From an uncultured Gammaproteobacteria bacterium (GTDB lineage: Bacteria; Patescibacteriota; Patescibacteriia; Magasanikbacterales; GWA2-37-8): a stretch of DNA of 64,000 bases. The notes beneath the pieces are model-generated. The model made no database searches, was not told where the DNA came from, and worked only from the letters and a program-made list of their open reading frames with translations. Positions 6,410 to 47,790 of this stretch are shown piece by piece (positions within the stretch are counted from its first letter, which is position 1; the number at the start of each line of letters is the position of its first letter). The stretch lies in the NCBI GenBank assembly GCA_964533715.1, contig CAZHNI010000001.1, forward strand, positions 5,514 to 69,513, given 5' to 3'. A program made the position numbers and the translations under genes.

Positions 6410-7660
6410 ATGTTTAAGTCAATTAATTTAACAGAAAATATCCAGGGCGCCTGGCAGATTTTAAGCCGTAATAAAGTACGGTCTTTTTTGACTATGCTTG
6501 GTATTATTATTGGTGTTATGGCGGTAGTGGTTATAATGTCTGTTGGGGCGGGGGCGCAGAGCTTGATTCTTAACCAAATTAAGGGTTTAGGGTCTAATTT
6601 GGTTGGAGTTCTTCCCGGAAAATCTGATGATAAAGGACCGCCAGCCGTGGTTTTTGGTATTGTAATAACAACTTTAACAACCGAAGACGGCCGGGCAATA
6701 ATGCAGTCGGGTGATTCGCATTTAGTTGCGCAGACCGCTTATGTGCGTGGGGTCGATACTGTAAAGGCTGGCGATATTTCTGACGACACTACGTTTGTTG
6801 GGGTTAGCGCCACATATCCGCAGGTCGAATCAATTACCGTTGCAAATGGACGCTTTTTTTCTGATGAAGAAGAACGTACCTTTGGACGAGTAGCCGTGTT
6901 AGGTAGCGAAACCGCGGATACGCTATTCCCCGATATGGATCCAATTGGTCAAATAATAAAAATAAAACAAACCAATTTTCAAGTTATTGGAGTGGTTAGC
7001 AAAAGAGGGGTGAGTGGTTTCCAAAATCAAGATAATCAAATTTTTGTTCCGGTGAGTACCGCTCAAAAATTGTTGCTTGGCATTAATTATGTTAATTTTA
7101 TTCGTGTAAAAGTTGATTCGGCAGAAAATGTTGATGCAAGTGTGGAACACATAAAAGAAATTTTACGCACACGACATGAAATTTCTAACCCAGAAAATGA
7201 TGATTTTTCCGTACGTTCTTCTAATCAGGGTCTAGATGTTTTAACGAGCGTAACGAACGCACTTCGTTTCTTTTTGGCGGCAATTGCAGCCTTGTCTTTG
7301 GTGGTTGGAGGTATTGGTATTATGAATATAATGCTCGCGGCAGTTGAAGAAAGAACTAAAGAAATTGGGCTTCGAAAAGCTGTTGGGGCAACTACTCGGC
7401 ACATTACATTACAATTTCTTATTGAGACAGTAATGATTACGTTTGTTGGAGGTATTATTGGTGTTATTCTTGGTATTCTTATTTCTATAATTGTAGCAAA
7501 AGTTGCAGTAAGTAGAGGTTATCAGTGGGATCTGGTTATTACTTTTAGTTCAATTTTTTTAGGTTGTTTTGTTTCAATCATAATTGGCTTTATTTTTGGG
7601 CTCAATCCGGCAAGACGTGCGAGCCGTCTTAGCCCTATGGAAGCATTACGTTACGAATAA
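6410..7660 (+). CDS. ABC transporter permease, FtsX/MacB-like
   Basis: N-terminal TM helix, large periplasmic domain, and three C-terminal TM helices with FtsX-like conservation (GIGIMNIMLAAVEERTKEIGLRKAVGA). Confidence 0.65.
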   Translation: MFKSINLTENIQGAWQILSRNKVRSFLTMLGIIIGVMAVVVIMSVGAGAQSLILNQIKGLGSNLVGVLPGKSDDKGPPAVVFGIVITTLTTEDGRAIMQSGDSHLVAQTAYVRGVDTVKAGDISDDTTFVGVSATYPQVESITVANGRFFSDEEERTFGRVAVLGSETADTLFPDMDPIGQIIKIKQTNFQVIGVVSKRGVSGFQNQDNQIFVPVSTAQKLLLGINYVNFIRVKVDSAENVDASVEHIKEILRTRHEISNPENDDFSVRSSNQGLDVLTSVTNALRFFLAAIAALSLVVGGIGIMNIMLAAVEERTKEIGLRKAVGATTRHITLQFLIETVMITFVGGIIGVILGILISIIVAKVAVSRGYQWDLVITFSSIFLGCFVSIIIGFIFGLNPARRASRLSPMEALRYE

Positions 7661-19475: not shown

Positions 19476-20004
19476 CATTAAAAATCCCCCGCAGTATGAG
19501 CGAGGGATTTTAGTTGTTTATTTTTTAAGACTCTTTGGTTTCATCCAGTAATTTTTACGACGGAATTTTTTTGTTTTTCGTGCCAAGGAGTGGGCTTTTT
19601 TAGTATTTTTTTTGGCGTGTTTTAAACGAGAGCGCAAGGCTGTGTTCATAAGATGATTATTTAAAAGTTTGGGTATAATAGCAGATTATCTTTAAAAATG
19701 CAAATTTTGCTTAGTCAAGCAAAAACTTTTCATTAAATTTTAAATTATTATTCGAGTAATTTAATTACCTAACCGTTGGTTGATACTCAGAATAGTACAC
19801 CTATAAAGTACACCTATACTTGACACCTGTAACAAATTGGTGTAGGCTTGTTTTGCCAAACTCCTGGCTTTTTTTGTTACCCAATTCGCCGCACCGCGCA
19901 TGTGGTGGGTAGGGAACAGGGGAACCACGGAGTTACAACCACGGGCCGCGCACGGCTGCGCGCGCCCACATCCCGCTACGCGAAAGGCGGGAGGAGGATT
20001 GACC

Positions 20005-21513
20005 ATGTTGCATCGCTGGTTCGTCACGATCGTGGCGTTCGCCTTGGCCCTGGGCCTCGGCAGCGCCGTCAACATCAACGTCAACAGCAACCGCCCCGTC
20101 CTCGGCGCCATCGTCGGCGTACTGGGTGAGGGGGTGGCGGCCGCGCAGGTGCCGACCAACTACCGGTTCTTCAACGGCACCGGCGTGAACGGCCAGCTCG
20201 GCCAGCCCTACACGCAGGGCGCTCAGTCGGCGCTCAAGGTGCGGATCGAGAAGGTGTGGCCCACCATCGCCAAGCGGCACCAGAATGCCCTGGAGTATTA
20301 TGGGGTAATGGCCAACACCAACTGGTTCAGGAACAACTCCGGTCCGCAAGGGGAGTACTGGTTCGTGGCGGGGATCTTCCGCCAGCTCACCAAGATCCCG
20401 CTGGACGACCGAAACAAGACAAACGAGGCACTGGTGGGAAAGATCTCATCGGATCCTGACTATGTCGACTCGCTGATGATCATGAACAAGACCGGCGCGC
20501 TCATCAGCGGTGGGTACGTGGGCGAGGTGCACGTCTATTTCGGCGATGTGAAGGGTGGGTGCACGCCGAACGCCCTGGCCTACTACTTCTCTCCCCCTGA
20601 CATTTCGGGGATGAAGGTAGTCGGAGTTGTGCTCTGCGGAGACGACGGCGTCCGGGTGGCCAACTTGCCAACCGACTTCGGTGGTTTCGATACTACCCTG
20701 GAAAGCATCTTCGTCCACGAGTTCGCGCATGCCGTCGACGACGTACACAAGGCAACCACAGGCAATGAGCTGAACATCTCGGATATCATGGAGATGGATC
20801 GGTCCTGCATCCGGGTCTACGGGTTGAAGGGGATCTTGGCGTTGGTGGGGAACTCGGCCTACGATCCGCTCACGTATCTCGATCTGCGAACCATCGCGGA
20901 TTGGTACCCGATCTGGGTGTCGGTGATCAACTACAATTACGATGCTTCGAAGCAGATACTGGTCGGGATGAACGTGGCGGGCGGGTCGTGCGGAGGTGTG
21001 CAAGACGATGTCGGGACGTGCAAGAACGGGCAGACCCCCGTTGCCGCTTGCGGCGGCCTCCCCATCGGCGACGCCGGCACCCCTACCGACGGGGGCATAG
21101 CACCCCTCGACCTCGGCGGCAGCTTCAGAACCCCTTGCACCTCCGACTCGCAGTGCGCCAGCAAGGTGTGCCAAGACGGCCTTTGCCGCAGCCCGTACTG
21201 CGGCAACGGAGTTTTGAACCGCGTGGGTGTCGGAGGAGGCTCCGGTGAGTCCGACATTGACTGCGGAGGGGAGGAATGCGGCAGGTGCGCCGATGGCAAG
21301 AAGTGCTTCGCGGCCACCGACTGCAAGTCCGGCGTGTGCACCGGCGGCAAGTGCGCGGGGGGCGGTGATGTCCAGGGCGGCTGCGATGTCGGCACCGGAC
21401 GCGGTGACCGCAACTGGGGCGCCATTGTGCTCCTGCTCGCTGTGCTCCTCATCTTTTCGTCGGCCATCGCCGCTTGGCGGCAGTTCGAACGGAAGCAAGG
21501 GCGTCGCACCTAG
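20005..21513 (+). CDS. secreted, C-terminally membrane-anchored zinc metalloprotease-like protein with a Cys-rich stalk
   Basis: RBS GGAGGAGG 8 nt upstream of ATG 20005. Signal peptide MLHRWFVTIVAFALALGLGSA. HEFAHAVDDVH, an HExxH motif with a third His at metzincin spacing. Repeated CxxGxC modules (CGNGVLN, CGGEECGRC, CKSGVCTGGKC), a C-terminal TM helix and a basic tail. Confidence 0.6.
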   Translation: MLHRWFVTIVAFALALGLGSAVNINVNSNRPVLGAIVGVLGEGVAAAQVPTNYRFFNGTGVNGQLGQPYTQGAQSALKVRIEKVWPTIAKRHQNALEYYGVMANTNWFRNNSGPQGEYWFVAGIFRQLTKIPLDDRNKTNEALVGKISSDPDYVDSLMIMNKTGALISGGYVGEVHVYFGDVKGGCTPNALAYYFSPPDISGMKVVGVVLCGDDGVRVANLPTDFGGFDTTLESIFVHEFAHAVDDVHKATTGNELNISDIMEMDRSCIRVYGLKGILALVGNSAYDPLTYLDLRTIADWYPIWVSVINYNYDASKQILVGMNVAGGSCGGVQDDVGTCKNGQTPVAACGGLPIGDAGTPTDGGIAPLDLGGSFRTPCTSDSQCASKVCQDGLCRSPYCGNGVLNRVGVGGGSGESDIDCGGEECGRCADGKKCFAATDCKSGVCTGGKCAGGGDVQGGCDVGTGRGDRNWGAIVLLLAVLLIFSSAIAAWRQFERKQGRRT

Positions 21514-21543
21514 TGCCCCCCACGTGAAGTAAAATCATCCGCA

Positions 21544-21590
21544 CCCCGGCCAACCCGGCCGCGTGCGCGGACGAGGTTGGGTTGGCCGGG
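21544..21590 (+). terminator. GC-rich hairpin at the 3' end of the island gene
   Basis: Perfect 11-bp stem CCGGCCAACCC / GGGTTGGCCGG; no T-run (high-GC style). Confidence 0.4.
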
Positions 21591-21668
21591 TAGGCGAGTA
21601 AAATAAAACTAAGAAAAAATGGAGGGGGAGACCGATCGACTCCTCAAATCGATCATCTACAAAAACAA

Positions 21669-25646: not shown

Positions 25647-26510
25647 ATGTATACGTCCGTAACAATTAAACAGTTGCACCACGCACTCCAAGCGCTTGAC
25701 CCATCAGCGCTTGTTTTGTTAGGGGGCAGTTATTTATATGACGAAGCGGTAGAGGAAAGTGATGTTGATTTTTATTTTATAATACCTTCATGGAAGATAT
25801 TTTTTTTAAAGAAATTTAAAAAAATAATTCAGAATTTAAAACAGCGTTTTTCTGGCGTGAATTTTAGTGTTATGATTGTGCCACAATGGCTTCGACGGCA
25901 TGGATACTATATTTATGGAAAAGATGTCAGCGGTAAAATTCATACATGGGAACTCCCAATTTCAATATTAATAAGGAATTGTCTTAAGCTGGCCTATTTT
26001 AATTATTTACGGTCAATGGTGGAACCAAAAAATAAAGAGAGAAATGTTCAGAAAGTAAAAAAGCAACTTGCGGTAGCAGAACTTGCCGCGCAAGGTAAGG
26101 TAGATTTTAAAGAACCAATTTTTTCGTGGAAATATATCAAACGACATTTGGTCTCGTCTGTCATTTCGACCGTAGCGACCAAAGGGAGCGAAGTGGAGAA
26201 ATCGCTTGACTGCAGTGACTCACAGATCAAGGGATTCCTCGACTGCGGCTTCGCCTTCGCTCGGAATGACAACGCGAATGACGGTCTACGGCAAGTGCAT
26301 GGACAATTCCTCCCATATTTTAATTTTTCCTTGTCAAATTATTTGCTTTACAATATTCGTTTTTTGCTCAAAGGCAACCCCTTGTTTCTATTTAGTAATC
26401 CTGATAAAATGGTGTTAGAAAAAATGGTTATTGGAATTGAGCACGAAGAAAAACTCCCAGAATTGTATAAAGAAATAAAAAGAATTGTTTTTCCTGTTAT
26501 TATTTTTTAA
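25647..26510 (+). CDS. nucleotidyltransferase-domain protein with an in-frame palindromic-element insertion
   Basis: LLGGSYLYDEAVEESDVDFYFI matches the pol-beta superfamily GS...DxD signature. Codons ~172-209 are encoded by repeat copy 26159-26271. Confidence 0.4.
   Translation: MYTSVTIKQLHHALQALDPSALVLLGGSYLYDEAVEESDVDFYFIIPSWKIFFLKKFKKIIQNLKQRFSGVNFSVMIVPQWLRRHGYYIYGKDVSGKIHTWELPISILIRNCLKLAYFNYLRSMVEPKNKERNVQKVKKQLAVAELAAQGKVDFKEPIFSWKYIKRHLVSSVISTVATKGSEVEKSLDCSDSQIKGFLDCGFAFARNDNANDGLRQVHGQFLPYFNFSLSNYLLYNIRFLLKGNPLFLFSNPDKMVLEKMVIGIEHEEKLPELYKEIKRIVFPVIIF
26159..26271. repeat. palindromic MITE-like element copy (TIR TGTCATTTCGACCG...CGCTCGGAATGACA), in frame in the nucleotidyltransferase gene
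   Basis: Terminal inverted repeats and internal sub-palindromes are shared with the other copies. Confidence 0.7.
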
Positions 26511-31214: not shown

Positions 31215-32165
31215 ATGATGATAGATACACACGCCCATGCGCACTTTAACGCCTATAAGGATGATATGGACGAAGTAATAGAGCGGAGCCTTGCTAGGGG
31301 TGCTGTTATTAATTTAGTTGGGACCCAAGCAGATACGAGCAAGCGGGCGGTTGAAGTCGCCGAAAAATATGACGGAGTATACGCCACAATTGGTCTTCAT
31401 CCAGAACATCTTTTTTCCAAGTGGGTTGACGAAGAAGAAACCTCTTTTCAATCGCGGGAAGAAAGTTTTGATTATGAGTACTACAAAAGTTTGGCGGTAA
31501 TGCCCAAAGTTATTGGCATAGGGGAGTGTGGGTTAGATTTTTACCGTATTCCCGAAGGTATGACCAAAGAGGCTATGCTCCCTAAACAGGCAGAAGTTTT
31601 TAGGCAGCATATTAATTTATCTCAAGAAACAAACTTGCCGCTGATAATTCATTGTCGTGAGGCGCATGAGGAGATGATTGCCATCCTGAACACGTTCGTT
31701 TCGCTCAGTGTAAACTCCGCGGAGCGTGGTGAAGGACCCCCTCAAAAGCAAGGGGATTATTCGGTCGTCCCGAGCAATTCGGGACTCCCTCAGAATGACA
31801 ATGCAAACAAAAAATTACGTGGCACGATGCACTGCTACACCAGCAGCTGGATTAATGCCCAAAAATATTTAGAAATGGGTTTTTACATTGGTTTTACCGG
31901 CGTTATTACATTTCCTCCCCAAAAAGCGAACCCGCAAGCCCAGGCGGATTTATTGGAAGTTGTTCGTAAGATGCCAGAGGACAGGATACTTTTGGAAACC
32001 GATTGCCCTTATTTATCACCAATTCCATATAGAGGAAAGCGAGGCGAGCCTTGGATGATTGAGGCAACAGCAGCAAAAATAGCGGAACTCCGCGGAATAA
32101 GTTTGGAAGAAACCCTAAGCGTAACAACAAAAAATGCGCGGAACCTTTTTCAGAAAATGGTTTAG
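31215..32165 (+). CDS. tatD: TatD-family metal-dependent hydrolase with an in-frame palindromic-element insertion
   Basis: IDTHAHAH, GECGLDFY, IIHCREAHEE, HCYTSSW and ETDCPYL motifs. About 35 extra residues (VSLSVNSAERGEGPPQKQGDYSVVPSNSGLPQNDNA) between the third and fourth metal-binding motifs are encoded by repeat copy 31697-31798. Confidence 0.7.
   Translation: MMIDTHAHAHFNAYKDDMDEVIERSLARGAVINLVGTQADTSKRAVEVAEKYDGVYATIGLHPEHLFSKWVDEEETSFQSREESFDYEYYKSLAVMPKVIGIGECGLDFYRIPEGMTKEAMLPKQAEVFRQHINLSQETNLPLIIHCREAHEEMIAILNTFVSLSVNSAERGEGPPQKQGDYSVVPSNSGLPQNDNANKKLRGTMHCYTSSWINAQKYLEMGFYIGFTGVITFPPQKANPQAQADLLEVVRKMPEDRILLETDCPYLSPIPYRGKRGEPWMIEATAAKIAELRGISLEETLSVTTKNARNLFQKMV
31697..31798. 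repeat. degenerate palindromic element copy, in frame in tatD
   Basis: Right TIR CCCTCAGAATGACA, left arm degenerate (CGTTTCGCTCAGTG), inner palindrome GTCCCGAGcaatTCGGGAC. Confidence 0.55.
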
Positions 32166-32503: not shown

Positions 32504-33286
32504 ATGTCCCAATTGATTTTACCACCACTCGGCGCTGAAACCATGTTTCATATTGGTTCGATACCTGTTACCAACACCATCGTTAACACTTGGATAGCGA
32601 TGGTTATTTTTTTAATCTTTGGCTTGGCGCTTCGCAAACGCGTATCGCTCCGACCAGGAAAATTGCAAAATTATTGCGAATATTTTTTGGATATTTTACT
32701 CGGATATTTTGACCAAGTAACTGGTAGCCGAAAAAAGACAATCCAATTTCTTCCTGTTGTTGGTTCAATTTTTTTCTTTATTTTACTTTCTAACTGGCTT
32801 GGGCTTCTCCCTGGAACCGGCAGCATTCTTAAGGGCCACGAACCATTGCTGCGTCCGGCTAATACCGATTTGAATTTAACCATTGCTATGGCCGCAGTGG
32901 CGGTTATTTCATCGCATATTTTTGGTTTTTTATCGGTAGGATTTTTTACACATATTGGTAAATTTGTTCAAATCAAAAATTTTATAAAAAGTATCCCCAA
33001 AGGTCCGGTTGCAATTTTTCAAGCAATTGTGGAATTTGCAGTTGGGCTAATTGAAATTGTGAGTGAACTTGCCAAAGTAATGTCGCTTTCACTTCGTCTT
33101 TTTGGTAATATTTTTGCTGGTGAAGTTTTAATGACGGTGATGCTTAGTTTGGTAGCGGCGGTGGTTCCGGTTCCATTTATGCTTTTGGAGTTGTTGGTCG
33201 GCATTATTCAAGCTAGTGTGTTTGCCATACTTACGTTAGTATATATGTCTGTTGCCAGCGCTGAACCACACGGAGCGGAACACTAA
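32504..33286 (+). CDS. atpB: F0F1 ATP synthase subunit a
   Basis: Five-six TM helices with the conserved Arg in LSLSLRLFGNIFAGEV. Confidence 0.85.
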   Translation: MSQLILPPLGAETMFHIGSIPVTNTIVNTWIAMVIFLIFGLALRKRVSLRPGKLQNYCEYFLDILLGYFDQVTGSRKKTIQFLPVVGSIFFFILLSNWLGLLPGTGSILKGHEPLLRPANTDLNLTIAMAAVAVISSHIFGFLSVGFFTHIGKFVQIKNFIKSIPKGPVAIFQAIVEFAVGLIEIVSELAKVMSLSLRLFGNIFAGEVLMTVMLSLVAAVVPVPFMLLELLVGIIQASVFAILTLVYMSVASAEPHGAEH

Positions 33287-33323
33287 AACATAAAAACACA
33301 AGAACATTAAAACACAATAAGCC

Positions 33324-33356
33324 GTTTTAATGTTTTAATGTTTTAATGTTTTAATG
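33324..33356. repeat. tandem octamer (TTTTAATG)x4 preceded by an 11-bp perfect hairpin in the atpB-atpE spacer
   Basis: AACATTAAAAC...GTTTTAATGTT stem, then GTTTTAATG repeated four times. Confidence 0.7.
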
Positions 33357-33701: not shown

Positions 33702-33824
33702 TGTCATTCTGAGCCTGCCTCCTGCATGCGCAGGTATGGCGCAGACAGGTGAAATGAAGAATCTTCCTATTATGAAGATCCTTCCCCAAAGGGGTCCCTT
33801 TGGGACGCTCTGCTCAGGATGACA
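33702..33824. repeat. palindromic element copy, intergenic atpE-atpF
   Basis: TIR TGTCATTCTGAGC...GCTCAGGATGACA. Carries the CCTGCCTCCTGCATGCGCAGG and GAAGAATCTTCCTATTATGAAGATCCTTC modules. Confidence 0.75.
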
Positions 33825-34776: not shown

Positions 34777-34884
34777 TGTCATTGCGAGGAGCAAAGCGAC
34801 GAAGCAATCCCCCTGAGTTCAGTGCTCCTGAAAACAAGGGGATCGCCACGTCAGCCGGTGCGAACCGGCTTCCTCGCGATGATA
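34777..34884. repeat. palindromic element copy, intergenic atpH-atpA
   Basis: TIR TGTCATTGCGAGG...CCTCGCGATGATA; shares the GCAATCCCCCTGA core with the rlmN copy. Confidence 0.7.
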
Positions 34885-36716: not shown

Positions 36717-37739
36717 ATGGCAGTAAGTACCAAAACAATTAAACGCCGCATCAAATCAATTTCCAACACCAAAAAAATTACTAAGGCCATGGAGATGATT
36801 AGTGCGGTAAAAATGCGCCGAGCGGTAGCCAATGTTTTGGCTACCCGAAATTATGCTAGCCTGGCTTGGGAAATGCTTAAAGAAATTTCCGAGTACACGC
36901 ACGATGGCCACCATGCACTCTTGCAAAAAAGGCCTGTTAAAAAAATCGGTCTCATTTTAATTACCAGTAACCGAGGGTTGGCTGGCGGTTTTAGCAGCCG
37001 GTTATTGCAGGAAGTAGACAGCTACATAAAAAAAATCACTCATCAAACTGTCATTCCGACGACACGTGCGCTCCGCTCAGTGCAGGCTCCAGAGGAATCT
37101 CTGGCTCATTCGAATGACGGACAGAGATCCCTCGTCGGCGCGAGCCTCACTCGGGATGACAAAGTGCAAATTGGCATTGAAGCCGACATCATTCTTACTG
37201 GTAAGCGCGGCAAAAAAATTTATCATCGTTTTGGGCACACTGTGGTGGCCGAATTTGATAAAGTAGATCTTACCACCAGAATTGAAGAAATTTTACCCAT
37301 GGCCCAGTTGGCGGTAAAAGAATTTGTTGCCGGAACATACGACCAAATTGTAGTGGCGTACATGCATTTTAAATCCGCAATTGAACAAGTGGCCACAGTA
37401 AAACAAATTTTGCCGCTTACGAAAGATTCAATTAAAGAACTGGCCGCCAAAGAAGCTGATGACACTGAAGAAATAGAAGAGAGCACATTTTTGTTTGAGC
37501 CAAACCCGGCGCTGGTGCTTGATGTACTCTTGCCACGTTTGGTTGAAATGCAAATGTATCAGGCAATTTTGGAATCGGACGCCTCCGAGCACAGCGCTCG
37601 CATGATGGCTATGCGAAACGCCAGTGATTCGGCCAGCGATATGATTAAAGAGTTGCAAAACAGCTTTAACAAAGCACGCCAAGCAGCTATTACCCAAGAA
37701 ATTAGTGAAATTGTGGGTGGTGCAGCGGCCCTGGAGTAA
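36717..37739 (+). CDS. atpG: F0F1 ATP synthase subunit gamma with an in-frame palindromic-element insertion
   Basis: Conserved N-terminus (TKTIKRRIKSISNTKKITKAMEMISAVKMRRA) and C-terminus (MMAMRNASDSA...ITQEISEIVGGAAALE). About 38 extra residues (TVIPTTRALRSV...TRDDK) are encoded by repeat copy 37049-37161. Confidence 0.85.
   Translation: MAVSTKTIKRRIKSISNTKKITKAMEMISAVKMRRAVANVLATRNYASLAWEMLKEISEYTHDGHHALLQKRPVKKIGLILITSNRGLAGGFSSRLLQEVDSYIKKITHQTVIPTTRALRSVQAPEESLAHSNDGQRSLVGASLTRDDKVQIGIEADIILTGKRGKKIYHRFGHTVVAEFDKVDLTTRIEEILPMAQLAVKEFVAGTYDQIVVAYMHFKSAIEQVATVKQILPLTKDSIKELAAKEADDTEEIEESTFLFEPNPALVLDVLLPRLVEMQMYQAILESDASEHSARMMAMRNASDSASDMIKELQNSFNKARQAAITQEISEIVGGAAALE
37049..37161. repeat. 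palindromic element copy, in frame in atpG
   Basis: TIR TGTCATTCCGACG...CTCGGGATGACA; inner GAGGAATCTCTGG...GGACAGAGATCC module. Confidence 0.75.
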
Positions 37740-40167: not shown

Positions 40168-40224
40168 TATTCCCCCTCCTCGACTCCTCCCTTATGTTTA
40201 GGGGAGGGATGTGGGCGGGGAATA
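40168..40224. repeat. GC-rich nested palindrome (second element class) downstream of the atp terminator
   Basis: TATTCCCC-CTCCTCG-ACTCCTCCC...GGGGAGGG...GGGGAATA nested inverted repeats; related in style to the helicase insert 44899-44975. Confidence 0.45.
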
Positions 40225-42005: not shown

Positions 42006-42070
42006 TGTCATTCCGAGCGAGGCCAAAGGCCGGCGAGAAATCTCTGTCTCAATCAAATGGACAGAGATTT
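42006..42070. repeat. truncated palindromic element copy (left TIR plus AAATCTCTGTCtcaatcaaatgGACAGAGATTT module)
   Basis: TGTCATTCCGAGCGAGGCC left end identical to the helicase copies; right TIR missing. Confidence 0.65.
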
Positions 42071-42075
42071 TTTTC

Positions 42076-42122: not shown

Positions 42123-42187
42123 TGTCATTCTGAGTGAAACGAAGAATCCTCCTATTATGAAGATCCTTCGCTCCGCTCAGGATGACA
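42123..42187. repeat. short palindromic element copy immediately upstream of, and overlapping, the rlmN start region
   Basis: TGTCATTCTGAGTG...CGCTCAGGATGACA with the GAAGAATCCTCCTATTATGAAGATCCTTC module. Confidence 0.75.
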
Positions 42188-42199
42188 GACGATTATCAC

Positions 42200-43411
42200 A
42201 TGACTAAAATTGTCAAAACAATAGAATCCATTCTAGCTAATGAACCCGCCTTCCGCATTAAGCAAATTGAAAAGGCGTGGTTTGATGTGTCCTTAAATTC
42301 GTACGATGAAATTACTACCTTGCCAAAAGAGCTTCGCGAAAAATTAAAAGATATTCCCTGGTTAAGTTTGGAAGTCCACACCGAATTAAAAAGCAAAATG
42401 GATAACACGCGCAAATACCTTTTTAAACTAGGGGATGGGAATTTGATTGAGATGGTCTTGATGGGTCGTATGTCATTGCGAGCCCCGAAGGGGCGCGGCA
42501 ATCCCCCTGATTTGATCGAGGACGTTGACGAGGAGATTGCTTCGTCAGTCGCTGCGACGCTCCTTTCTCGCAATGACACATCGGCGATTGGCCGCGACAC
42601 CAGTGGCGATCGTTACACCATCTGTATTTCATCTCAAGCCGGGTGCCCCATGCGGTGTGCGTTTTGCGCCACGAGCAAAAGCGGTTTTAAGCGTAATCTT
42701 ACCGCCGAAGAAATTATAGATCAATATCGTTTCGCCCAGCGACTACTGGCCAAAGAAAATAATCGGGTGAATAATATTGTGCTCATGGGCCAAGGGGAAC
42801 CGCTGGTAAACTATGAGAACGTAAAAAAAGCGATCAATACTATTTTAAAAAACAGCGACATCGGCTCTACCAAAATAACTCTATCCACTGTTGGTTATGT
42901 GCCCGCCATGGAAAAAATGATAACCGACACCGACTTTCCGCCGGTGCGTTTTGCCTTGTCACTTCACAGCGCTATAGAAGAATCGCGTAAAAAAATTATT
43001 CCAACGCACAAACCAGGGTTTTTGGAATGGCTCGTGAAGTGGGGGAATGCCTACCACGAAAAATTTGGCAACCGCACCCATTTTATTGGTTTTGAGTACA
43101 TTATGTTAAGTGGGGTAAATGATGATGAAGCACATTTGAAGGCACTGATAAAATTGTGCAAACGTTTTCCTATCGTTCGCGTTAACCTCATTCCGTACAA
43201 CACCACCAACGATGCCGGTGAGGTTGATGAAATTAATAAATTGGAAGAACAAATGGGCTCTAATTATCGCATTTTTACCCGCACCCCGCACGAGCTTATT
43301 GAACATTGGCACGAGAGTCTTATGGATGCGGGAATTACGTCCACTATCCGTTATTCGCAGGGGCAGGATATTGCGGCGGCGTGTGGGCAACTCCGGAATA
43401 AAGAAAAATAG
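42200..43411 (+). CDS. rlmN: radical SAM rRNA/tRNA adenosine-C2 methyltransferase RlmN with an in-frame palindromic-element insertion
   Basis: Radical SAM CxxxCxxC (CPMRCAFC), GQGEPL, and a C-terminal catalytic Cys region. About 36 extra residues (MSLRAPKGRGNPPDLIEDVDEEIASSVAATLLSRND) upstream of the cluster are encoded by repeat copy 42471-42578. Start set at ATG 42200, because tracked start 42182 lies inside a repeat. Confidence 0.75.
   Translation: MTKIVKTIESILANEPAFRIKQIEKAWFDVSLNSYDEITTLPKELREKLKDIPWLSLEVHTELKSKMDNTRKYLFKLGDGNLIEMVLMGRMSLRAPKGRGNPPDLIEDVDEEIASSVAATLLSRNDTSAIGRDTSGDRYTICISSQAGCPMRCAFCATSKSGFKRNLTAEEIIDQYRFAQRLLAKENNRVNNIVLMGQGEPLVNYENVKKAINTILKNSDIGSTKITLSTVGYVPAMEKMITDTDFPPVRFALSLHSAIEESRKKIIPTHKPGFLEWLVKWGNAYHEKFGNRTHFIGFEYIMLSGVNDDEAHLKALIKLCKRFPIVRVNLIPYNTTNDAGEVDEINKLEEQMGSNYRIFTRTPHELIEHWHESLMDAGITSTIRYSQGQDIAAACGQLRNKEK
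42471..42578. repeat. palindromic element copy, in frame in rlmN (108 bp, 36 codons)
   Basis: TIR TGTCATTGCGAGC...CTCGCAATGACA. Confidence 0.75.
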
Positions 43412-44331: not shown

Positions 44332-44340
44332 AATTGCGGA

Positions 44341-44370
44341 CAGTGATTCTTCACTGCGCTCAGAATGACA
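44341..44370. repeat. partial palindromic element (right end CGCTCAGAATGACA plus CAGTGAttcttCACTG hairpin) at the helicase start
   Basis: Right TIR matches the family consensus. Confidence 0.45.
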
Positions 44371-44376
44371 GAAAAT

Positions 44377-47300
44377 ATGGGAAAATACTCTTTAAACAAG
44401 GCGCAACGTGAAGCCGTGGAGTATACCAGCGGCCCGCTTTTGATTGTGGCTGGGGCGGGGACGGGAAAGACGACGGTGATTACAAGTAAAATTTGTCGGT
44501 TGATTGAGGAAAAACTCGCCAAACCCGAGGAAATTTTGGCATTAACGTTTACCGAAAAAGCGGCGGCGGAAATGCAGGATAGGGTAGATGAGATAACCAA
44601 TATTGGCTACGCCGATCTCCACATTTCTACCTTCCACGCCTTTTGTCAAAAAATTCTGGAGCGGCATGCCATTGATATCGGCCTCTCCAATTCGTTTAAA
44701 CTCCTCACCGACACGGCGGGCTGGGTTTTGCTCCACAAAAATTTGGATAAATTTAATTTGGATTACTACCGACCGCTCGGCAACCCTACTAAACACATTC
44801 ACGAATTTTTAAAACATTTTTCTAAGTGCAAAGATGAATTAATTACACCGCAGGAATATTTGGAGTATGCGGAAGGTTTAAAATTGAACAATGGACGAGA
44901 CCCCACCCTGCCCTCCCCTTTGCGAAGGAGAGGGGACAAAACCCCCTCCTCTGCAGAGGAGGGGGTAGGGGGAGATCTCGCGGAGGTCGAGCGGCTTACG
45001 GAAATTGCCAACGCGTATCACACGTATAATCAACTGCTTTTGGACAACGCGCTATTTGATTTTGGCGATTTGCTTTTTTATACCGTCAAATTATTTCGCG
45101 AACGGCCGAATGTGCTCAAAATGTTCCAGAATAAATATAAATATATTTTGGTGGATGAATTTCAGGATGTGAACTATTCGCAGTATGAATTAATTAAACT
45201 CCTGGCGGACGCCTCATTGTCATTTCGACCGGAGCCCCAAAGGGGCGAAGTGGAGAAATCCCTGTCTCAATCACGAACGGACAGAGATTCCCTGCCTGCA
45301 CCATGCCTGCGCATGCAGGAGGCAGGCTCGTCGGCCTCCGGCCTCGCTCGGAATGACAATATTGTTGGTCCCAACCTCACCGTGGTAGGGGATGATGACC
45401 AAAGTATTTATGCCTTTCGCGGCGCCAGTGTGGCGAATATTCTAAGGTTTAAAGATGATTATCCAACAGCCAAAGAAGTGGTGCTATCGGAAAATTTTCG
45501 TTCCGGCCAAAAGATTTTGGATGTGGCGTATGAGTCTATTCAGAACAATAACCCGGATCGGTTGGAAGTGAAGTTAAAGATAGACAAGCGACTAAAGGCC
45601 AAAAGGCCATCTGTCATTTCGACGACGAAGGAGAAATCTCTGGCTCACCAAACGATGAATAGAGATTCCCTGCCTGCACCATGCCTGCGCATGCAGGAGG
45701 CAGGCTCGTCGGCCTCCGGCCTCGCTCGGAATGACAATGGGGATGGCGTGGTGATACATTTGCACAAACCAACCGTCGAAGACGAGGTAGCGGCTGTTTT
45801 GGACGAAATTACGCGTATTAAAACGGTTACCGAAGGCGTAACCTGGGATGATTTTGCTATTTTGGTTCGTGCCAACAATCACGCGGATGCGTTTATAAAC
45901 CAACTGCAAACACGAGGCATTCCATACGAATTTTTGGCTTCTAGCGGATTGTATCGTCAACCGATTATTTTGGATTGCATAAACTTTTTTAAACTCCTGA
46001 ATAATTATCACGAATCCAGCGCAATTTATCGACTGCTCTGTTTACCTTTTTTTGAATTTAGAGAAAATGATTTACAAAAAATTACCTTTAATGCCAAGCG
46101 CAAAAGTATTTCGTATTACGAAGCACTCAAACGCGCTCCCGAATTTGATGTGTCGCAAGCAGGGATTAGCGTGTGTGCTAAATTGGTGGAAGTAATTCAT
46201 GCCGGCCTCCAGAGTATGCGTTACGAAAAGCCATCGGTGGTGCTGTATTCATTTTTGGAAAATAGTGGTTACCTCAAATACTTAACACACCAGGAAAACG
46301 AAGGTAAGGGCGATGTGATTCGCCAAATTCATTATTTAAAACAGTTTTTTGATTACATTGCGCAGTATGAATCGGTAACGCCTGAGGCGCATGTGGTCGG
46401 GTTTATAGAGCATTTTATGATGGTAGTGGACGCGGGTGATAAGGGAAGCCTCTACCAGCCGAGCGACACACCGGATTCCGTAAATATTTTGACGGTGCAC
46501 GCCTCCAAGGGCTTGGAATTTCGCTATGTGTTTGTAGTGAATTTGGTAGAAGATCGGTTTCCATCACGCAGTCGCAGTGACGCGCTGGAAATTCCGCTTG
46601 AACTCGTGAAAGAGCAATTGCCGGAAGGCGATAGCCATATTCAAGAAGAACGACGATTGTTTTATGTGGCCATGACGCGCGCCAAGGAACGTTTGTATTT
46701 TACCAGCGCGAGCGATTATGGTGGTACGCGCACAAAAAAGATTAGCCGATTTTTGGCGGAGTTAGATTTTGGTTCTGTCATTCTGAACGGAGCAAAGCGC
46801 AGTGAAGAATCCCTGTCTGCGCAGGCAGGTCTGTCTCAATCACCAACCGACGGACAGGGATCCTTCGCTTCGCTCAGGATGACAAAAAAAGTAAATGAAA
46901 TGAGTGAGCGAGTGTACGAAACGCCAAAAACTTTTTCATTCTCACAATTGCGATCGTACGAAACCTGTCCATATCAATACAAACTGGCGCATATTTTGCA
47001 TATCCCCATGAAGGGCAGTGCGAGTTTTAGTTTTGGTTCCAGCATGCACAACACACTCCAAGCGTTTTATGAACGGGTAATTGAGCTTAACAGTTCCAAA
47101 CAAGTCTCACTTTTTGACACACCCAAACCATCTGTCATCCCGAGCGTAGTCGAGGGATCCCTTTCGCCAACGTCAAGGGATTCCTCCACTCCGCTACGCT
47201 CCGGTCGGAATGACAAAGCGGTGAAAGTACCAGAATTTGAGGAGCTCTTAAAAATGTACGACGCTAAGTGGATTTCGGATTGGTTTAAGGATAAACGCCA

Positions 47301-47790
47301 GCGCGAGGACATGTACAAAAAAGGTAAGGAAATTTTGAAAATATTTTATACTTCGCAAGAAGGCAATTGGAATATTCCAATTGGTTTAGAAAGCTGGTTC
47401 AAAATCAAGGTGGGGGATTATGTGATTAACGGACGTATTGACCGTTTGGATCAGCTCCCCGATGGTACCATTGAAATTATTGACTATAAAACCGGACAGG
47501 GCAAAGATAAATTAACCAGCGACGACAAAGAGCAACTTTTGTTGTATCAAATTGCAGTAGAAGAAATTGCCGAGTTTAAAGCGTACGGCAAACCAAGCAA
47601 ACTTACTTTCTACTATCTCAACGATGATTTAAAAACATCGTTTATTGGTGAACCAAAAGATACTGAGAAATTAAAAGAAAAATTCAAAACCACCATCGAG
47701 AGTATCGTCAAGGGAGATTTTACCGCCACACCCAGTCAATTTATTTGCGGCCGATGTGATTTTAGGGATATTTGTGAGTTTAGAGTATGA
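44377..47790 (+). CDS. UvrD/PcrA-like SF1 helicase fused to a C-terminal Cas4/AddB-like PD-(D/E)xK Fe-S nuclease (AddA-like helicase-nuclease), carrying five in-frame repeat insertions
   Basis: Helicase motifs GAGTGKTTV, DEFQD, VGDDDQSIYAFRGA, TVHASKGLEFRYVF and VAMTRAKERLYF. C-terminal nuclease EIIDYKTG plus QLLLYQIAV, with four Cys (CPYQY...CGRCDFRDIC). Repeat-encoded segments lie at 44899-44975, 45218-45358, 45612-45736, 46776-46884 and 47133-47215. Start set at ATG 44377. Confidence 0.8.
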   Translation: MGKYSLNKAQREAVEYTSGPLLIVAGAGTGKTTVITSKICRLIEEKLAKPEEILALTFTEKAAAEMQDRVDEITNIGYADLHISTFHAFCQKILERHAIDIGLSNSFKLLTDTAGWVLLHKNLDKFNLDYYRPLGNPTKHIHEFLKHFSKCKDELITPQEYLEYAEGLKLNNGRDPTLPSPLRRRGDKTPSSAEEGVGGDLAEVERLTEIANAYHTYNQLLLDNALFDFGDLLFYTVKLFRERPNVLKMFQNKYKYILVDEFQDVNYSQYELIKLLADASLSFRPEPQRGEVEKSLSQSRTDRDSLPAPCLRMQEAGSSASGLARNDNIVGPNLTVVGDDDQSIYAFRGASVANILRFKDDYPTAKEVVLSENFRSGQKILDVAYESIQNNNPDRLEVKLKIDKRLKAKRPSVISTTKEKSLAHQTMNRDSLPAPCLRMQEAGSSASGLARNDNGDGVVIHLHKPTVEDEVAAVLDEITRIKTVTEGVTWDDFAILVRANNHADAFINQLQTRGIPYEFLASSGLYRQPIILDCINFFKLLNNYHESSAIYRLLCLPFFEFRENDLQKITFNAKRKSISYYEALKRAPEFDVSQAGISVCAKLVEVIHAGLQSMRYEKPSVVLYSFLENSGYLKYLTHQENEGKGDVIRQIHYLKQFFDYIAQYESVTPEAHVVGFIEHFMMVVDAGDKGSLYQPSDTPDSVNILTVHASKGLEFRYVFVVNLVEDRFPSRSRSDALEIPLELVKEQLPEGDSHIQEERRLFYVAMTRAKERLYFTSASDYGGTRTKKISRFLAELDFGSVILNGAKRSEESLSAQAGLSQSPTDGQGSFASLRMTKKVNEMSERVYETPKTFSFSQLRSYETCPYQYKLAHILHIPMKGSASFSFGSSMHNTLQAFYERVIELNSSKQVSLFDTPKPSVIPSVVEGSLSPTSRDSSTPLRSGRNDKAVKVPEFEELLKMYDAKWISDWFKDKRQREDMYKKGKEILKIFYTSQEGNWNIPIGLESWFKIKVGDYVINGRIDRLDQLPDGTIEIIDYKTGQGKDKLTSDDKEQLLLYQIAVEEIAEFKAYGKPSKLTFYYLNDDLKTSFIGEPKDTEKLKEKFKTTIESIVKGDFTATPSQFICGRCDFRDICEFRV
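44899..44975. repeat. GC-rich palindromic insert (second class) in frame in the helicase
   Basis: CTCCCCTTtgcgAAGGAGAG and perfect CCCCCTCCTCTGCAGAGGAGGGGG palindromes; encodes PTLPSPLRRRGDKTPSSAEEGVGGD. Confidence 0.5.
45218..45358. repeat. palindromic element copy (141 bp, 47 codons), in frame in the helicase
   Basis: TIR TGTCATTTCGACCGGAGCC...GGCCTCGCTCGGAATGACA. The internal 95 bp are near-identical to copy 45612-45736. Confidence 0.8.
45612..45736. repeat. palindromic element copy, in frame in the helicase
   Basis: TIR TGTCATTTCGACG...CGCTCGGAATGACA; shares ...AGAGATTCCCTGCCTGCACCATGCCTGCGCATGCAGGAGGCAGGCTCGTCGGCCTCCGGCCTCGCTCGGAATGACAAT with copy 45218. Confidence 0.8.
46776..46884. 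repeat. palindromic element copy, in frame in the helicase
   Basis: TIR TGTCATTCTGAACG...GCTCAGGATGACA. Confidence 0.75.
47133..47215. repeat. short palindromic element copy, in frame in the helicase
   Basis: TIR TGTCATCCCGAGCG...CGGTCGGAATGACA. Confidence 0.7.

Follow-up and report, generated by a model that had tools for sequence, protein, structure and literature searches.

The tatD gene of an uncultured bacterium placed by GTDB in the Magasanikbacterales (Patescibacteriota) very probably carries, within a loop of the encoded protein, a decayed copy of a non-autonomous palindromic repeat that is translated through and is now eroding. The copy lies at positions 31697 to 31800 of the 64,000-nucleotide stretch of contig CAZHNI010000001.1 analyzed here (the window), and it belongs to a family of GC-rich inverted repeats of which the window holds 13 copies or fragments. 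Across Patescibacteria the same TatD loop is a recurrently occupied site, a fact missed by the preliminary description of this DNA.

The host is a tatD/ycfH-type metal-dependent hydrolase gene of 316 codons (31215 to 32165, + strand, as are all features of the insert given below). Pfam TatD_DNase covers its product end to end (E 2.6e-71, profile positions 1-253 of 253), and the best solved relatives are the TatD/YcfH structures 2gzx, 6l25 and 1j6o. The best-matching proteins bear names of Candidatus Magasanikbacteria. The residues H6, H8, E104, H146 (in IIHCRE), H206 (in HCYTS) and D263, the expected metal ligands of this amidohydrolase-type TIM barrel, are invariant across 42 TatD orthologues. 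Because the gene order metG-cvpA-tatD-atp operon is conserved in the related loci L081, L107 and L111, comparisons of the window with these loci are comparisons of true orthologues. TatD residues 159-199 have no counterpart in the solved structures, where about 6 residues are found, so that 34-35 residues are extra; relative to the syntenic, 78%-identical orthologue in L107, the net insertion is 34 codons. The segment of about 35 residues that the preliminary description placed between the motifs IIHCREAHEE and HCYTSSW is thus borne out by both comparisons. The inserted DNA is 104 nucleotides long, in frame and stop-free, and encodes approximately residues 162-195 (peptides within residues 160-200 include GEGPPQK and QGDYSVVPSNSGLPQNDNANK). 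Its G+C content is 55%, compared with 43.5% in the rest of tatD and 41% in the window.

Allowing up to two mismatches, the motif CCCTCAGAATGACA matches 11 times in the window against 0.29 expected, and left ends of the form TGTCATTCYGAGCG paired with right ends of the form CGCTCRGAATGACA yield ten full copies of 65-141 nucleotides, plus fragments. Family copies have 45-61% G+C. When the ten intact copies were folded, each formed a long hairpin closed by a terminal stem of 11-14 bp (z-scores -2.5 to -6.6); the family core consists of sub-terminal arms and a central hairpin, GGAATCYCT...AGRGATTCC, with hairpin modules that vary between copies. All 13 copies and fragments fall between 26159 and 47215, a 21-kb span from ProRS to a helicase gene that includes the atp operon, and a profile search found none in 1-26 kb or 47-64 kb of the window. 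The syntenic region in L081 contains eight copies in 20.8 kb and that in L107 one; copies outside the window were also found in L001, L014, L085, L107, L111 and L112. Rfam contains no family matching the elements, and at gathering score only three tRNAs were detected in the window.

Membership of the tatD insert was assessed with profiles that exclude every tatD-loop copy, with E-values computed for both strands of the window. A seed profile of the ten window copies matches 31682-31800 (9.4 bits, E 0.037). With a profile of 21 copies from the window, L081 and other loci, the insert scores 18.1 bits (E 8e-5, profile positions 4-93 of 93) and ranks directly under the seed copies. Once the right-repeat columns are removed, the score is 9.1 bits (E 0.035), and with both terminal repeats removed 31715-31772 is still the top non-seed match (9.2 bits, E 0.037), the next non-family match having an E-value of 7.8. 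When 31694-31786, a stretch that stops short of the right repeat, was dinucleotide-shuffled 5,000 times, the real score was reached once with the core profile and four times with the profile lacking the right repeat. In size and G+C content, too, the insert falls within the family range. The tatD insert is a copy of the window's TGTCATTCYGAGCG inverted-repeat family, as the preliminary description had claimed; aligned to the family, its similarity extends beyond the right terminal repeat into the core.

The copy has kept its right end and lost its left. The right terminal inverted repeat, CCCTCAGAATGACA (31787 to 31800), is an exact occurrence of the motif, encodes P-Q-N-D, and departs from the consensus CGCTCRGAATGACA by two mismatches at less conserved inner positions. 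Next to it stands a right-arm module hairpin of 7 bp in the minimum-energy fold, GTCCCGA-GCAAT-TCGGGAC (31767 to 31785), and the element core (31715 to 31772), recognized by the repeat-less profile, the fold and the shuffles, includes the central hairpin CCCCT-N8-AGGGG (31738-31755). The decayed left terminal repeat, CGTTTCGCTCAGT (31697 to 31709), was placed by codon alignment in register with TGTCATTCCGACC of the L111 tatD copy, an alternative register beginning at 31694. With the junction marked by a slash, L111 reads CTG CGC TCA AT/T GTC ATT CCG ACC and the window CTG AAC ACG TT/C GTT TCG CTC AGT. All ten intact copies have a complementary left repeat of the form TGTCATTCYGAGCG and the stem that it closes; the tatD copy has neither, and its fold retains three local hairpins (31697-31726, 31738-31755 and 31757-31798). 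It is degenerate because the left repeat and the terminal stem are lost, and since the stem can no longer form, it is presumably immobile. In leave-one-out scoring, 21 full copies range from 17 to 50 bits with a median of about 36; at about 18 bits the tatD copy is joint-lowest among full-length copies, in the company of the copy at 34777-34884 (17.4) and one in L001 (19.5). The intact right repeat reported in the preliminary description is therefore confirmed; its 'decayed left arm' is an apt description given the L111 register, although the arm by itself carries no statistical significance.

To set this copy in context, we surveyed the loop in 120 TatD orthologues of 50-79% identity. Most have no insert, with 26-34 residues between the two histidine motifs. 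Others carry elements of several kinds at this position. A subfamily reading ..LRSI/VIPT...SARND/.. is present in P0002, P0011, P0012, P0031, P0085, P0091, P0096 and others, and a GCGAG-type subfamily, ..LR(T)/VIA[RS]...APRND/.., is inserted one codon upstream in P0003-5, P0067, P0074 and P0078. The repeat is read in another frame, ..SL/CHPE[RQ]SEGS...QND/.., in P0093, P0113 and P0099, and right ends in a second frame, ..ATLGMTK.., occur in P0077, P0088 and P0101. A second, unrelated repeat of the PLPPPLQRRG and SPPFQGGDRGG types occupies the loop in P0007, P0034, P0072, P0087 and P0111. At the DNA level, intact elements are present in the tatD loops of L081 (86 nucleotides), L082 (101), L108 (122), L109 (89) and L111 (101, at the same junction as in the window; L111, the closest orthologue at 75% identity, is the DNA of P0123, a cluster member of P0002), and the same loop holds a copy in L003, a member of the Saccharibacteria.

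Some loops of 'empty' length contain a lone repeat end. In L083 (1021-1113) this is a right end, CTTCGCTCAGCTCAGAATGACA, read as ..LRSAQNDSKKL.., and in L086 (969-1061) a left end, GTCATCCTGAGCGAAGCGAAGGATCC, read as ..VILSEAKDPS... Lone right ends blur stepwise from SAQND through SVQND, STQNE and HVQDD to QVQGD, and lone left ends read VILSEAKN/D. The seemingly empty loop of L107 (10436-10525), ..CAG GTT CAG GGT GAC AAG.., resembles a right end at a later stage of decay; some of the variety among loops that look native in this clade may thus be repeat debris. Occupied and empty loops are intermingled all over a neighbor-joining tree for which the loop itself was masked, which implies that the loop has been hit repeatedly, by different subfamilies in different frames and at different junctions, and eroded repeatedly. 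The comparison of TatD orthologues that the preliminary description had proposed thus yielded intact, other-subfamily, second-repeat, lone-end and insert-free loops. A scan of a genome collection with a TatD alignment returned mostly distant TatD genes from outside the candidate phyla radiation (CPR) and no Magasanikbacteria, the peptide patterns being too generic, and a metagenome scan with a single TatD protein gave 23 loci, none of them above 68% identity or carrying a complete element in the loop.

The second repeat found in these loops comprises palindromes of the CCCTCCCC/GGGGAGGG type, read as PLPPPLQRRG, SPPFQGGDRGG or PSPYKGEDGGRG. It is also present in frame in L081 atpG, at about residues 236-280, and candidate copies in the window lie at 40184-40217 and 19963-19996 (inverted-repeat pair I9).

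These observations fit a scenario in which a GC-rich, non-autonomous element of the miniature-inverted-repeat type inserted into the tatD loop between helix alpha-5 and strand beta-6. Its survival would be due to a length of whole codons, the absence of a stop and a permissive surface loop as the site; transcription and translation would then run through it and yield a loop of about 34 disordered residues rich in Gly, Pro and Ser. Selection on TatD would maintain the reading frame only, leaving the left terminal repeat to mutate away, and the lone ends in the TatD loops of relatives could be the leftovers of internal deletions. Reading frames through the elements are open at a frequency of 0.30, against 0.24-0.29 expected by chance, so we rejected the idea of elements that are stop-free by design. 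Because frames are open only at the chance rate, the in-frame intragenic copies must be a selected subset, the survivors; together with the fact that all of them keep the frame, this argues that they are translated and not removed. An intein, an intron or another excised sequence was also rejected: 34 residues are too few for an intein, all intragenic copies keep the frame, and neither Rfam (E up to 1, 31600-31900) nor Pfam (the peptide) gave a match.

Several results weigh against this account. Over the whole window the partial profiles reach E-values of only about 0.035, and strong significance requires that the site be predefined by the protein alignment; since that alignment did define the site independently, the search that matters covers a few hundred bases, not 128 kb. 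The left arm at 31697-31709 is identical to any repeat variant at only 7-8 of 13 positions and is not significant alone. The profile instead puts the left repeat at 31682-31691, on codons of native helix alpha-5 (I-A-I-L-N, TGCCATCCTGAAC, 31679 to 31691) that match the left-repeat variant TGTCATCCTGAAC at 12 of 13 positions, and because of this preference the left boundary is uncertain within 31680-31697. We rejected a left repeat at 31682, as the residues IAIL precede an intact repeat in P0002, P0008 and L111; these codons are native, because the closest orthologues have IAIL, then R-S-I, then the intact repeat. Read in register with L111, the left end falls at 31697, the start given in the preliminary description. 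The best pairwise match among 27 copies, the L111 tatD copy, leads by a small margin (20 versus 18.5). No consistent direct repeat that could represent a target-site duplication was found in the flanks of 12 copies, and lengths of 0, 1 and 2 modulo 3 all occur among the in-frame copies, evidence against one fixed duplication length. No autonomous partner with the same ends turned up in the DNA examined, in which no transposase search was made. Given that neither a target-site duplication nor an autonomous partner was found, the mechanism of mobility is unproven, and transposition is the supposed origin of the copies.

Whether the degeneracy of the tatD copy reflects age is a separate question. 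The junction register of the window is common to L111, L082, L108 and L109, and in the middle of the insert CCTCAAAAGCAAGGGGATTATTCG and CCTCAACAGCCAAGAGATTTCTCG agree at about 75% of positions, close to the DNA identity of 74.7% between the window and L111 over the remainder of tatD. One insertion in the ancestor of the subclade is likely, as the most economical reading of these alignments; it is not proven, and because the pairwise margin is small, orthology of the window and L111 insertions is likely rather than demonstrated. Between these two tatD genes third codon positions are only 48% identical, yet both terminal repeats are kept in L111. A similar pattern is seen in atpG (36717 to 37739 in the window, 15601-16764 in L081), where a family copy lies in frame at 37049 to 37161 (+ strand), at a site where L107 has no element and L081 has one in the same position. 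Between the window and L081 the left repeat agrees at 13 of 13 positions and the core blocks have been kept, against an identity of 51% at third codon positions of the gene. Within the shared atpG element the three codon positions are conserved at 71, 65 and 59%; being about equal, they indicate conservation at the DNA level and not the pattern of protein selection. Because the repeats outlast third positions, intact intragenic copies must be younger than the split of their hosts (through re-insertion at a hot spot), homogenized, or constrained as DNA or RNA. The window tatD copy has dropped out of whichever of these processes keeps intact copies, and degeneracy is no simple clock.

It could accordingly be argued that the tatD copy is not older than the others, but is a recent insertion of a defective or variant element, or that the intact copies have been homogenized, so that degeneracy holds no information on age. 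The preservation of same-site terminal repeats in atpG and L111 tatD far beyond that of neutral sites agrees with this, as does the overlap of leave-one-out scores with those of the copies at 34777-34884 and in L001. The common junction register and the pairwise match to the L111 tatD copy favor a single old event in the subclade, and a one-ended element would be hard to mobilize by a mechanism that depends on inverted repeats. On balance we regard a recent or uninformative degeneracy as unlikely, at perhaps one chance in a handful. The preliminary description of an older insertion being eroded therefore stands as regards erosion, given the joint-lowest score, the lost stem and the states of decay in orthologues, and the greater age is probable. 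Its further suggestion that the copy provides a time axis for the family was overstated, in view of the repeats retained in atpG and L111 at such low third-position identity.

About equally doubtful is a bolder proposal, that these repeats form an undescribed system in CPR bacteria, resembling the Rickettsia palindromic elements (RPEs), in which certain protein loops are genuine hot spots of insertion and copies within genes are preserved as DNA. Pointers to a hot spot are the occupancy of the TatD alpha5-beta6 loop in Magasanikbacteria, other Patescibacteria and one Saccharibacteria genome, and the presence there of at least three subfamilies in different frames, with junctions one codon apart, in addition to the second repeat. 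A possible cause is that the helix-coding DNA (..ATC CTG AA..) mimics the terminal repeat of the element, at 12 of 13 positions in the window. As a general targeting rule such mimicry was rejected, since the flank of the atpG copy (one flank inspected) has no repeat-like sequence. As for preservation as DNA, the terminal repeats and the central hairpin at sites common to two genomes are far better kept than neutral positions. If the proposal is true, this would mean that the transposition machinery targets these sites, that gene conversion continues, or that the hairpin has a function.

The preliminary description also held that the insertion might be undergoing domestication. Under such a reading, the element peptide, or its RNA or DNA hairpins, would now benefit TatD or the expression of its gene and be maintained by selection. 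To evaluate the protein side, we modeled TatD with AlphaFold on the orthologue alignment (mean predicted local distance difference test score (pLDDT) 89, predicted template modeling score 0.86). In the model, left-arm residues lengthen helix alpha-5 (151-170) with declining confidence; there follows a stretch without structure (171-202, pLDDT below 50 at 181-195) and then strand 203-205, which leads to H206. In a TIM barrel, loops that follow a helix and precede a strand lie at the N-terminal strand ends, opposite the catalytic face, and the model agrees with this. The prediction is accordingly of a disordered insert loop away from the catalytic face, where tolerance of a floppy 34-residue loop is expected, and nothing points to a new function for it. 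Domestication could draw on the preserved reading frame, on three left-arm changes of synonymous type relative to a VILS-type repeat (GTC>GTT, CTG>CTC, AGC>AGT), on the persistence of local hairpins (fold z-scores -2.1 to -2.8), and on the many lineages that retain something in the TatD loop. The bias toward third codon positions amounts to four of six changes (about p = 0.1), however; the peptide has no protein-family match; insert-free orthologues, with loops of 27-30 residues, are common and interspersed in the tree; and the loop sequences of relatives differ wholly except at the repeat-encoded ends. We therefore find domestication improbable, and this part of the preliminary description is not upheld.

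Far less probable still is an ordinary lineage-specific expansion of low-complexity sequence, in which the family likeness is due to chance and a fortuitous 14-mer: despite the marginal partial-profile values (E 0.035-0.037) and the non-significant left arm, this is effectively refuted already by the full-profile E of 8e-5, shuffle p-values of about 2e-4 to 8e-4 without the 14-mer, the jump in G+C, and intact copies at the same junction in the closest orthologues.

Elsewhere in the window, eight of the 13 copies, that of tatD included, lie in frame inside genes. Relative to L107, the copies in tatD, atpG, a radical-SAM gene and a nucleotidyltransferase-domain gene are whole-codon insertions. 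The radical-SAM gene (42182 to 43411) has its copy at 42471 to 42578 (+ strand), a site that is empty in L107, and the nucleotidyltransferase-domain gene (25647 to 26510) at 26159 to 26271 (+ strand). Another repeat-like end, ACGCGAATGACGG, follows directly downstream of the latter at 26272-26284 and reads ..ARNDNANDG.. in translation, which suggests tandem or nested right ends. Four in-frame, stop-free copies (45218-45358, 45612-45736, 46776-46884 and 47133-47215, + strand) are found in a UvrD/PD-(D/E)XK helicase-nuclease gene (44365 to 47790); their in-frame status is read from the uninterrupted open reading frame of 1141 amino acids and not from an empty-site comparison, and Pfam domains are intact on either side of the copies. 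Two of these, aligned over 45252-45360 and 45630-45738, 378 nucleotides apart, share a 109-nucleotide right half at 90% identity that includes the module CCTGCCTGCACCATGCCTGCGCATGCAGGAGGCAGG, the same module being present in inverted orientation at 33711-33749. This likeness suggests module exchange or recent duplication. None of five insert peptides matched Pfam or NCBIfam at E-values up to 10. Repeat-derived strings such as ..RFAQNDK.. are common in metagenomic hypothetical proteins.

Among the intergenic copies, one lies at 33702 to 33824 (+ strand) and the copy at 34777-34884, whose right end is decayed, is immediately upstream of the real atpA start; other copies or fragments are at 42006-42075, 42123-42187 and 44335-44370. 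Outside the window, the viral-classified contig L110 (IMGVR_UViG_3300000062_000066; 59% G+C) has one intergenic copy of 65 nucleotides with perfect terminal repeats (6909-6973). The palindrome type is thus not confined to CPR genomes; as a clue to a vector or parent element this copy proved uninformative. Two further features of the window were noted. Directly after atpB, at 33281-33356, an AT-rich inverted repeat and a tandem run, (GTTTTAAT)n, may constitute a terminator or regulatory region. At 19900-21600 there is an island of 56-60% G+C, whose open reading frame (19900 to 21513, 537 amino acids) has no Pfam match, and which could be foreign DNA or a chimera of assembly or binning.

Such insertions inflate protein lengths and produce spurious 'lineage-specific loops' in proteins from metagenome-assembled genomes; here eight of 13 copies within 64 kb lie inside essential-type genes. 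The series of states of the TatD loop (empty, intact, other subfamily, second family, lone ends and decayed) amounts to a natural experiment on how selfish DNA is absorbed and eroded, and it cautions against naively reading the degeneracy of a copy as its age. What adds to the interest of the system is that this loop is occupied again and again and that intact copies within genes are conserved as DNA. Neither this repeat nor any in-frame repeat of CPR bacteria turned up in the literature, coverage being incomplete and the result an absence of evidence; the terminal-repeat string occurs in papers by chance only, mostly in primers.

Among known systems, repetitive extragenic palindromes (REPs) are 20-40 bp long and extragenic, have GTAG or CGTC heads, and are mobilized by REP-associated tyrosine transposases (PMC3733652). 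Like REPs and bacterial interspersed mosaic elements, the elements described here are GC-rich, hairpin-forming, clustered palindromes, but they are 65-141 nucleotides long, have TGTCA...TGACA ends and are often intragenic. In architecture and copy number they fit the class of miniature inverted-repeat transposable elements, being small, with terminal inverted repeats, strong hairpin potential, no transposase gene, and dispersed inter- and intragenic copies. This architecture is that of the family, the tatD copy itself having kept a single repeat. The differences are that no target-site duplication was found and that the share of in-frame intragenic copies, eight of 13 in the window, is unusually high.

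The nearest parallel is with the RPEs, which, as summarized in the review PMC10969869 (Ogata et al. 2000, 2002), are short palindromes of about 100-150 bp, dispersed in a small genome; many lie in frame in housekeeping genes unrelated to one another, are translated as additional peptide segments at positions that the protein fold can accommodate, and range from intact to degraded. The present elements are likewise short, dispersed palindromes that lie in frame and appear to be translated at fold-compatible sites, with copies from intact to degraded. In-frame insertion is seen in tatD, atpG, the radical-SAM gene and the nucleotidyltransferase-domain gene by comparison with L107, and in the helicase gene by its intact reading frame. 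Our elements differ from RPEs in residing in Patescibacteria (CPR), free-living or episymbiotic, instead of Rickettsiales; in their clear terminal inverted repeats of 13-14 nucleotides (TG...CA) and modular hairpin inserts; and in the recurrent occupation of one loop of one protein by several subfamilies. NCBIfam includes TIGRFAM models of RPE domains. The element peptides matched neither NCBIfam nor Pfam, and no sequence relationship to RPEs was seen. Judged from its sequence, the element works like an RPE without being a member of the RPE family. Translated in-frame palindromes have been regarded as a near-unique oddity of Rickettsia; what appears to be the same phenomenon is now found with an unrelated element in a candidate-phylum bacterium, which suggests that it is a general outcome when small genomes meet small, GC-rich palindromic repeats.

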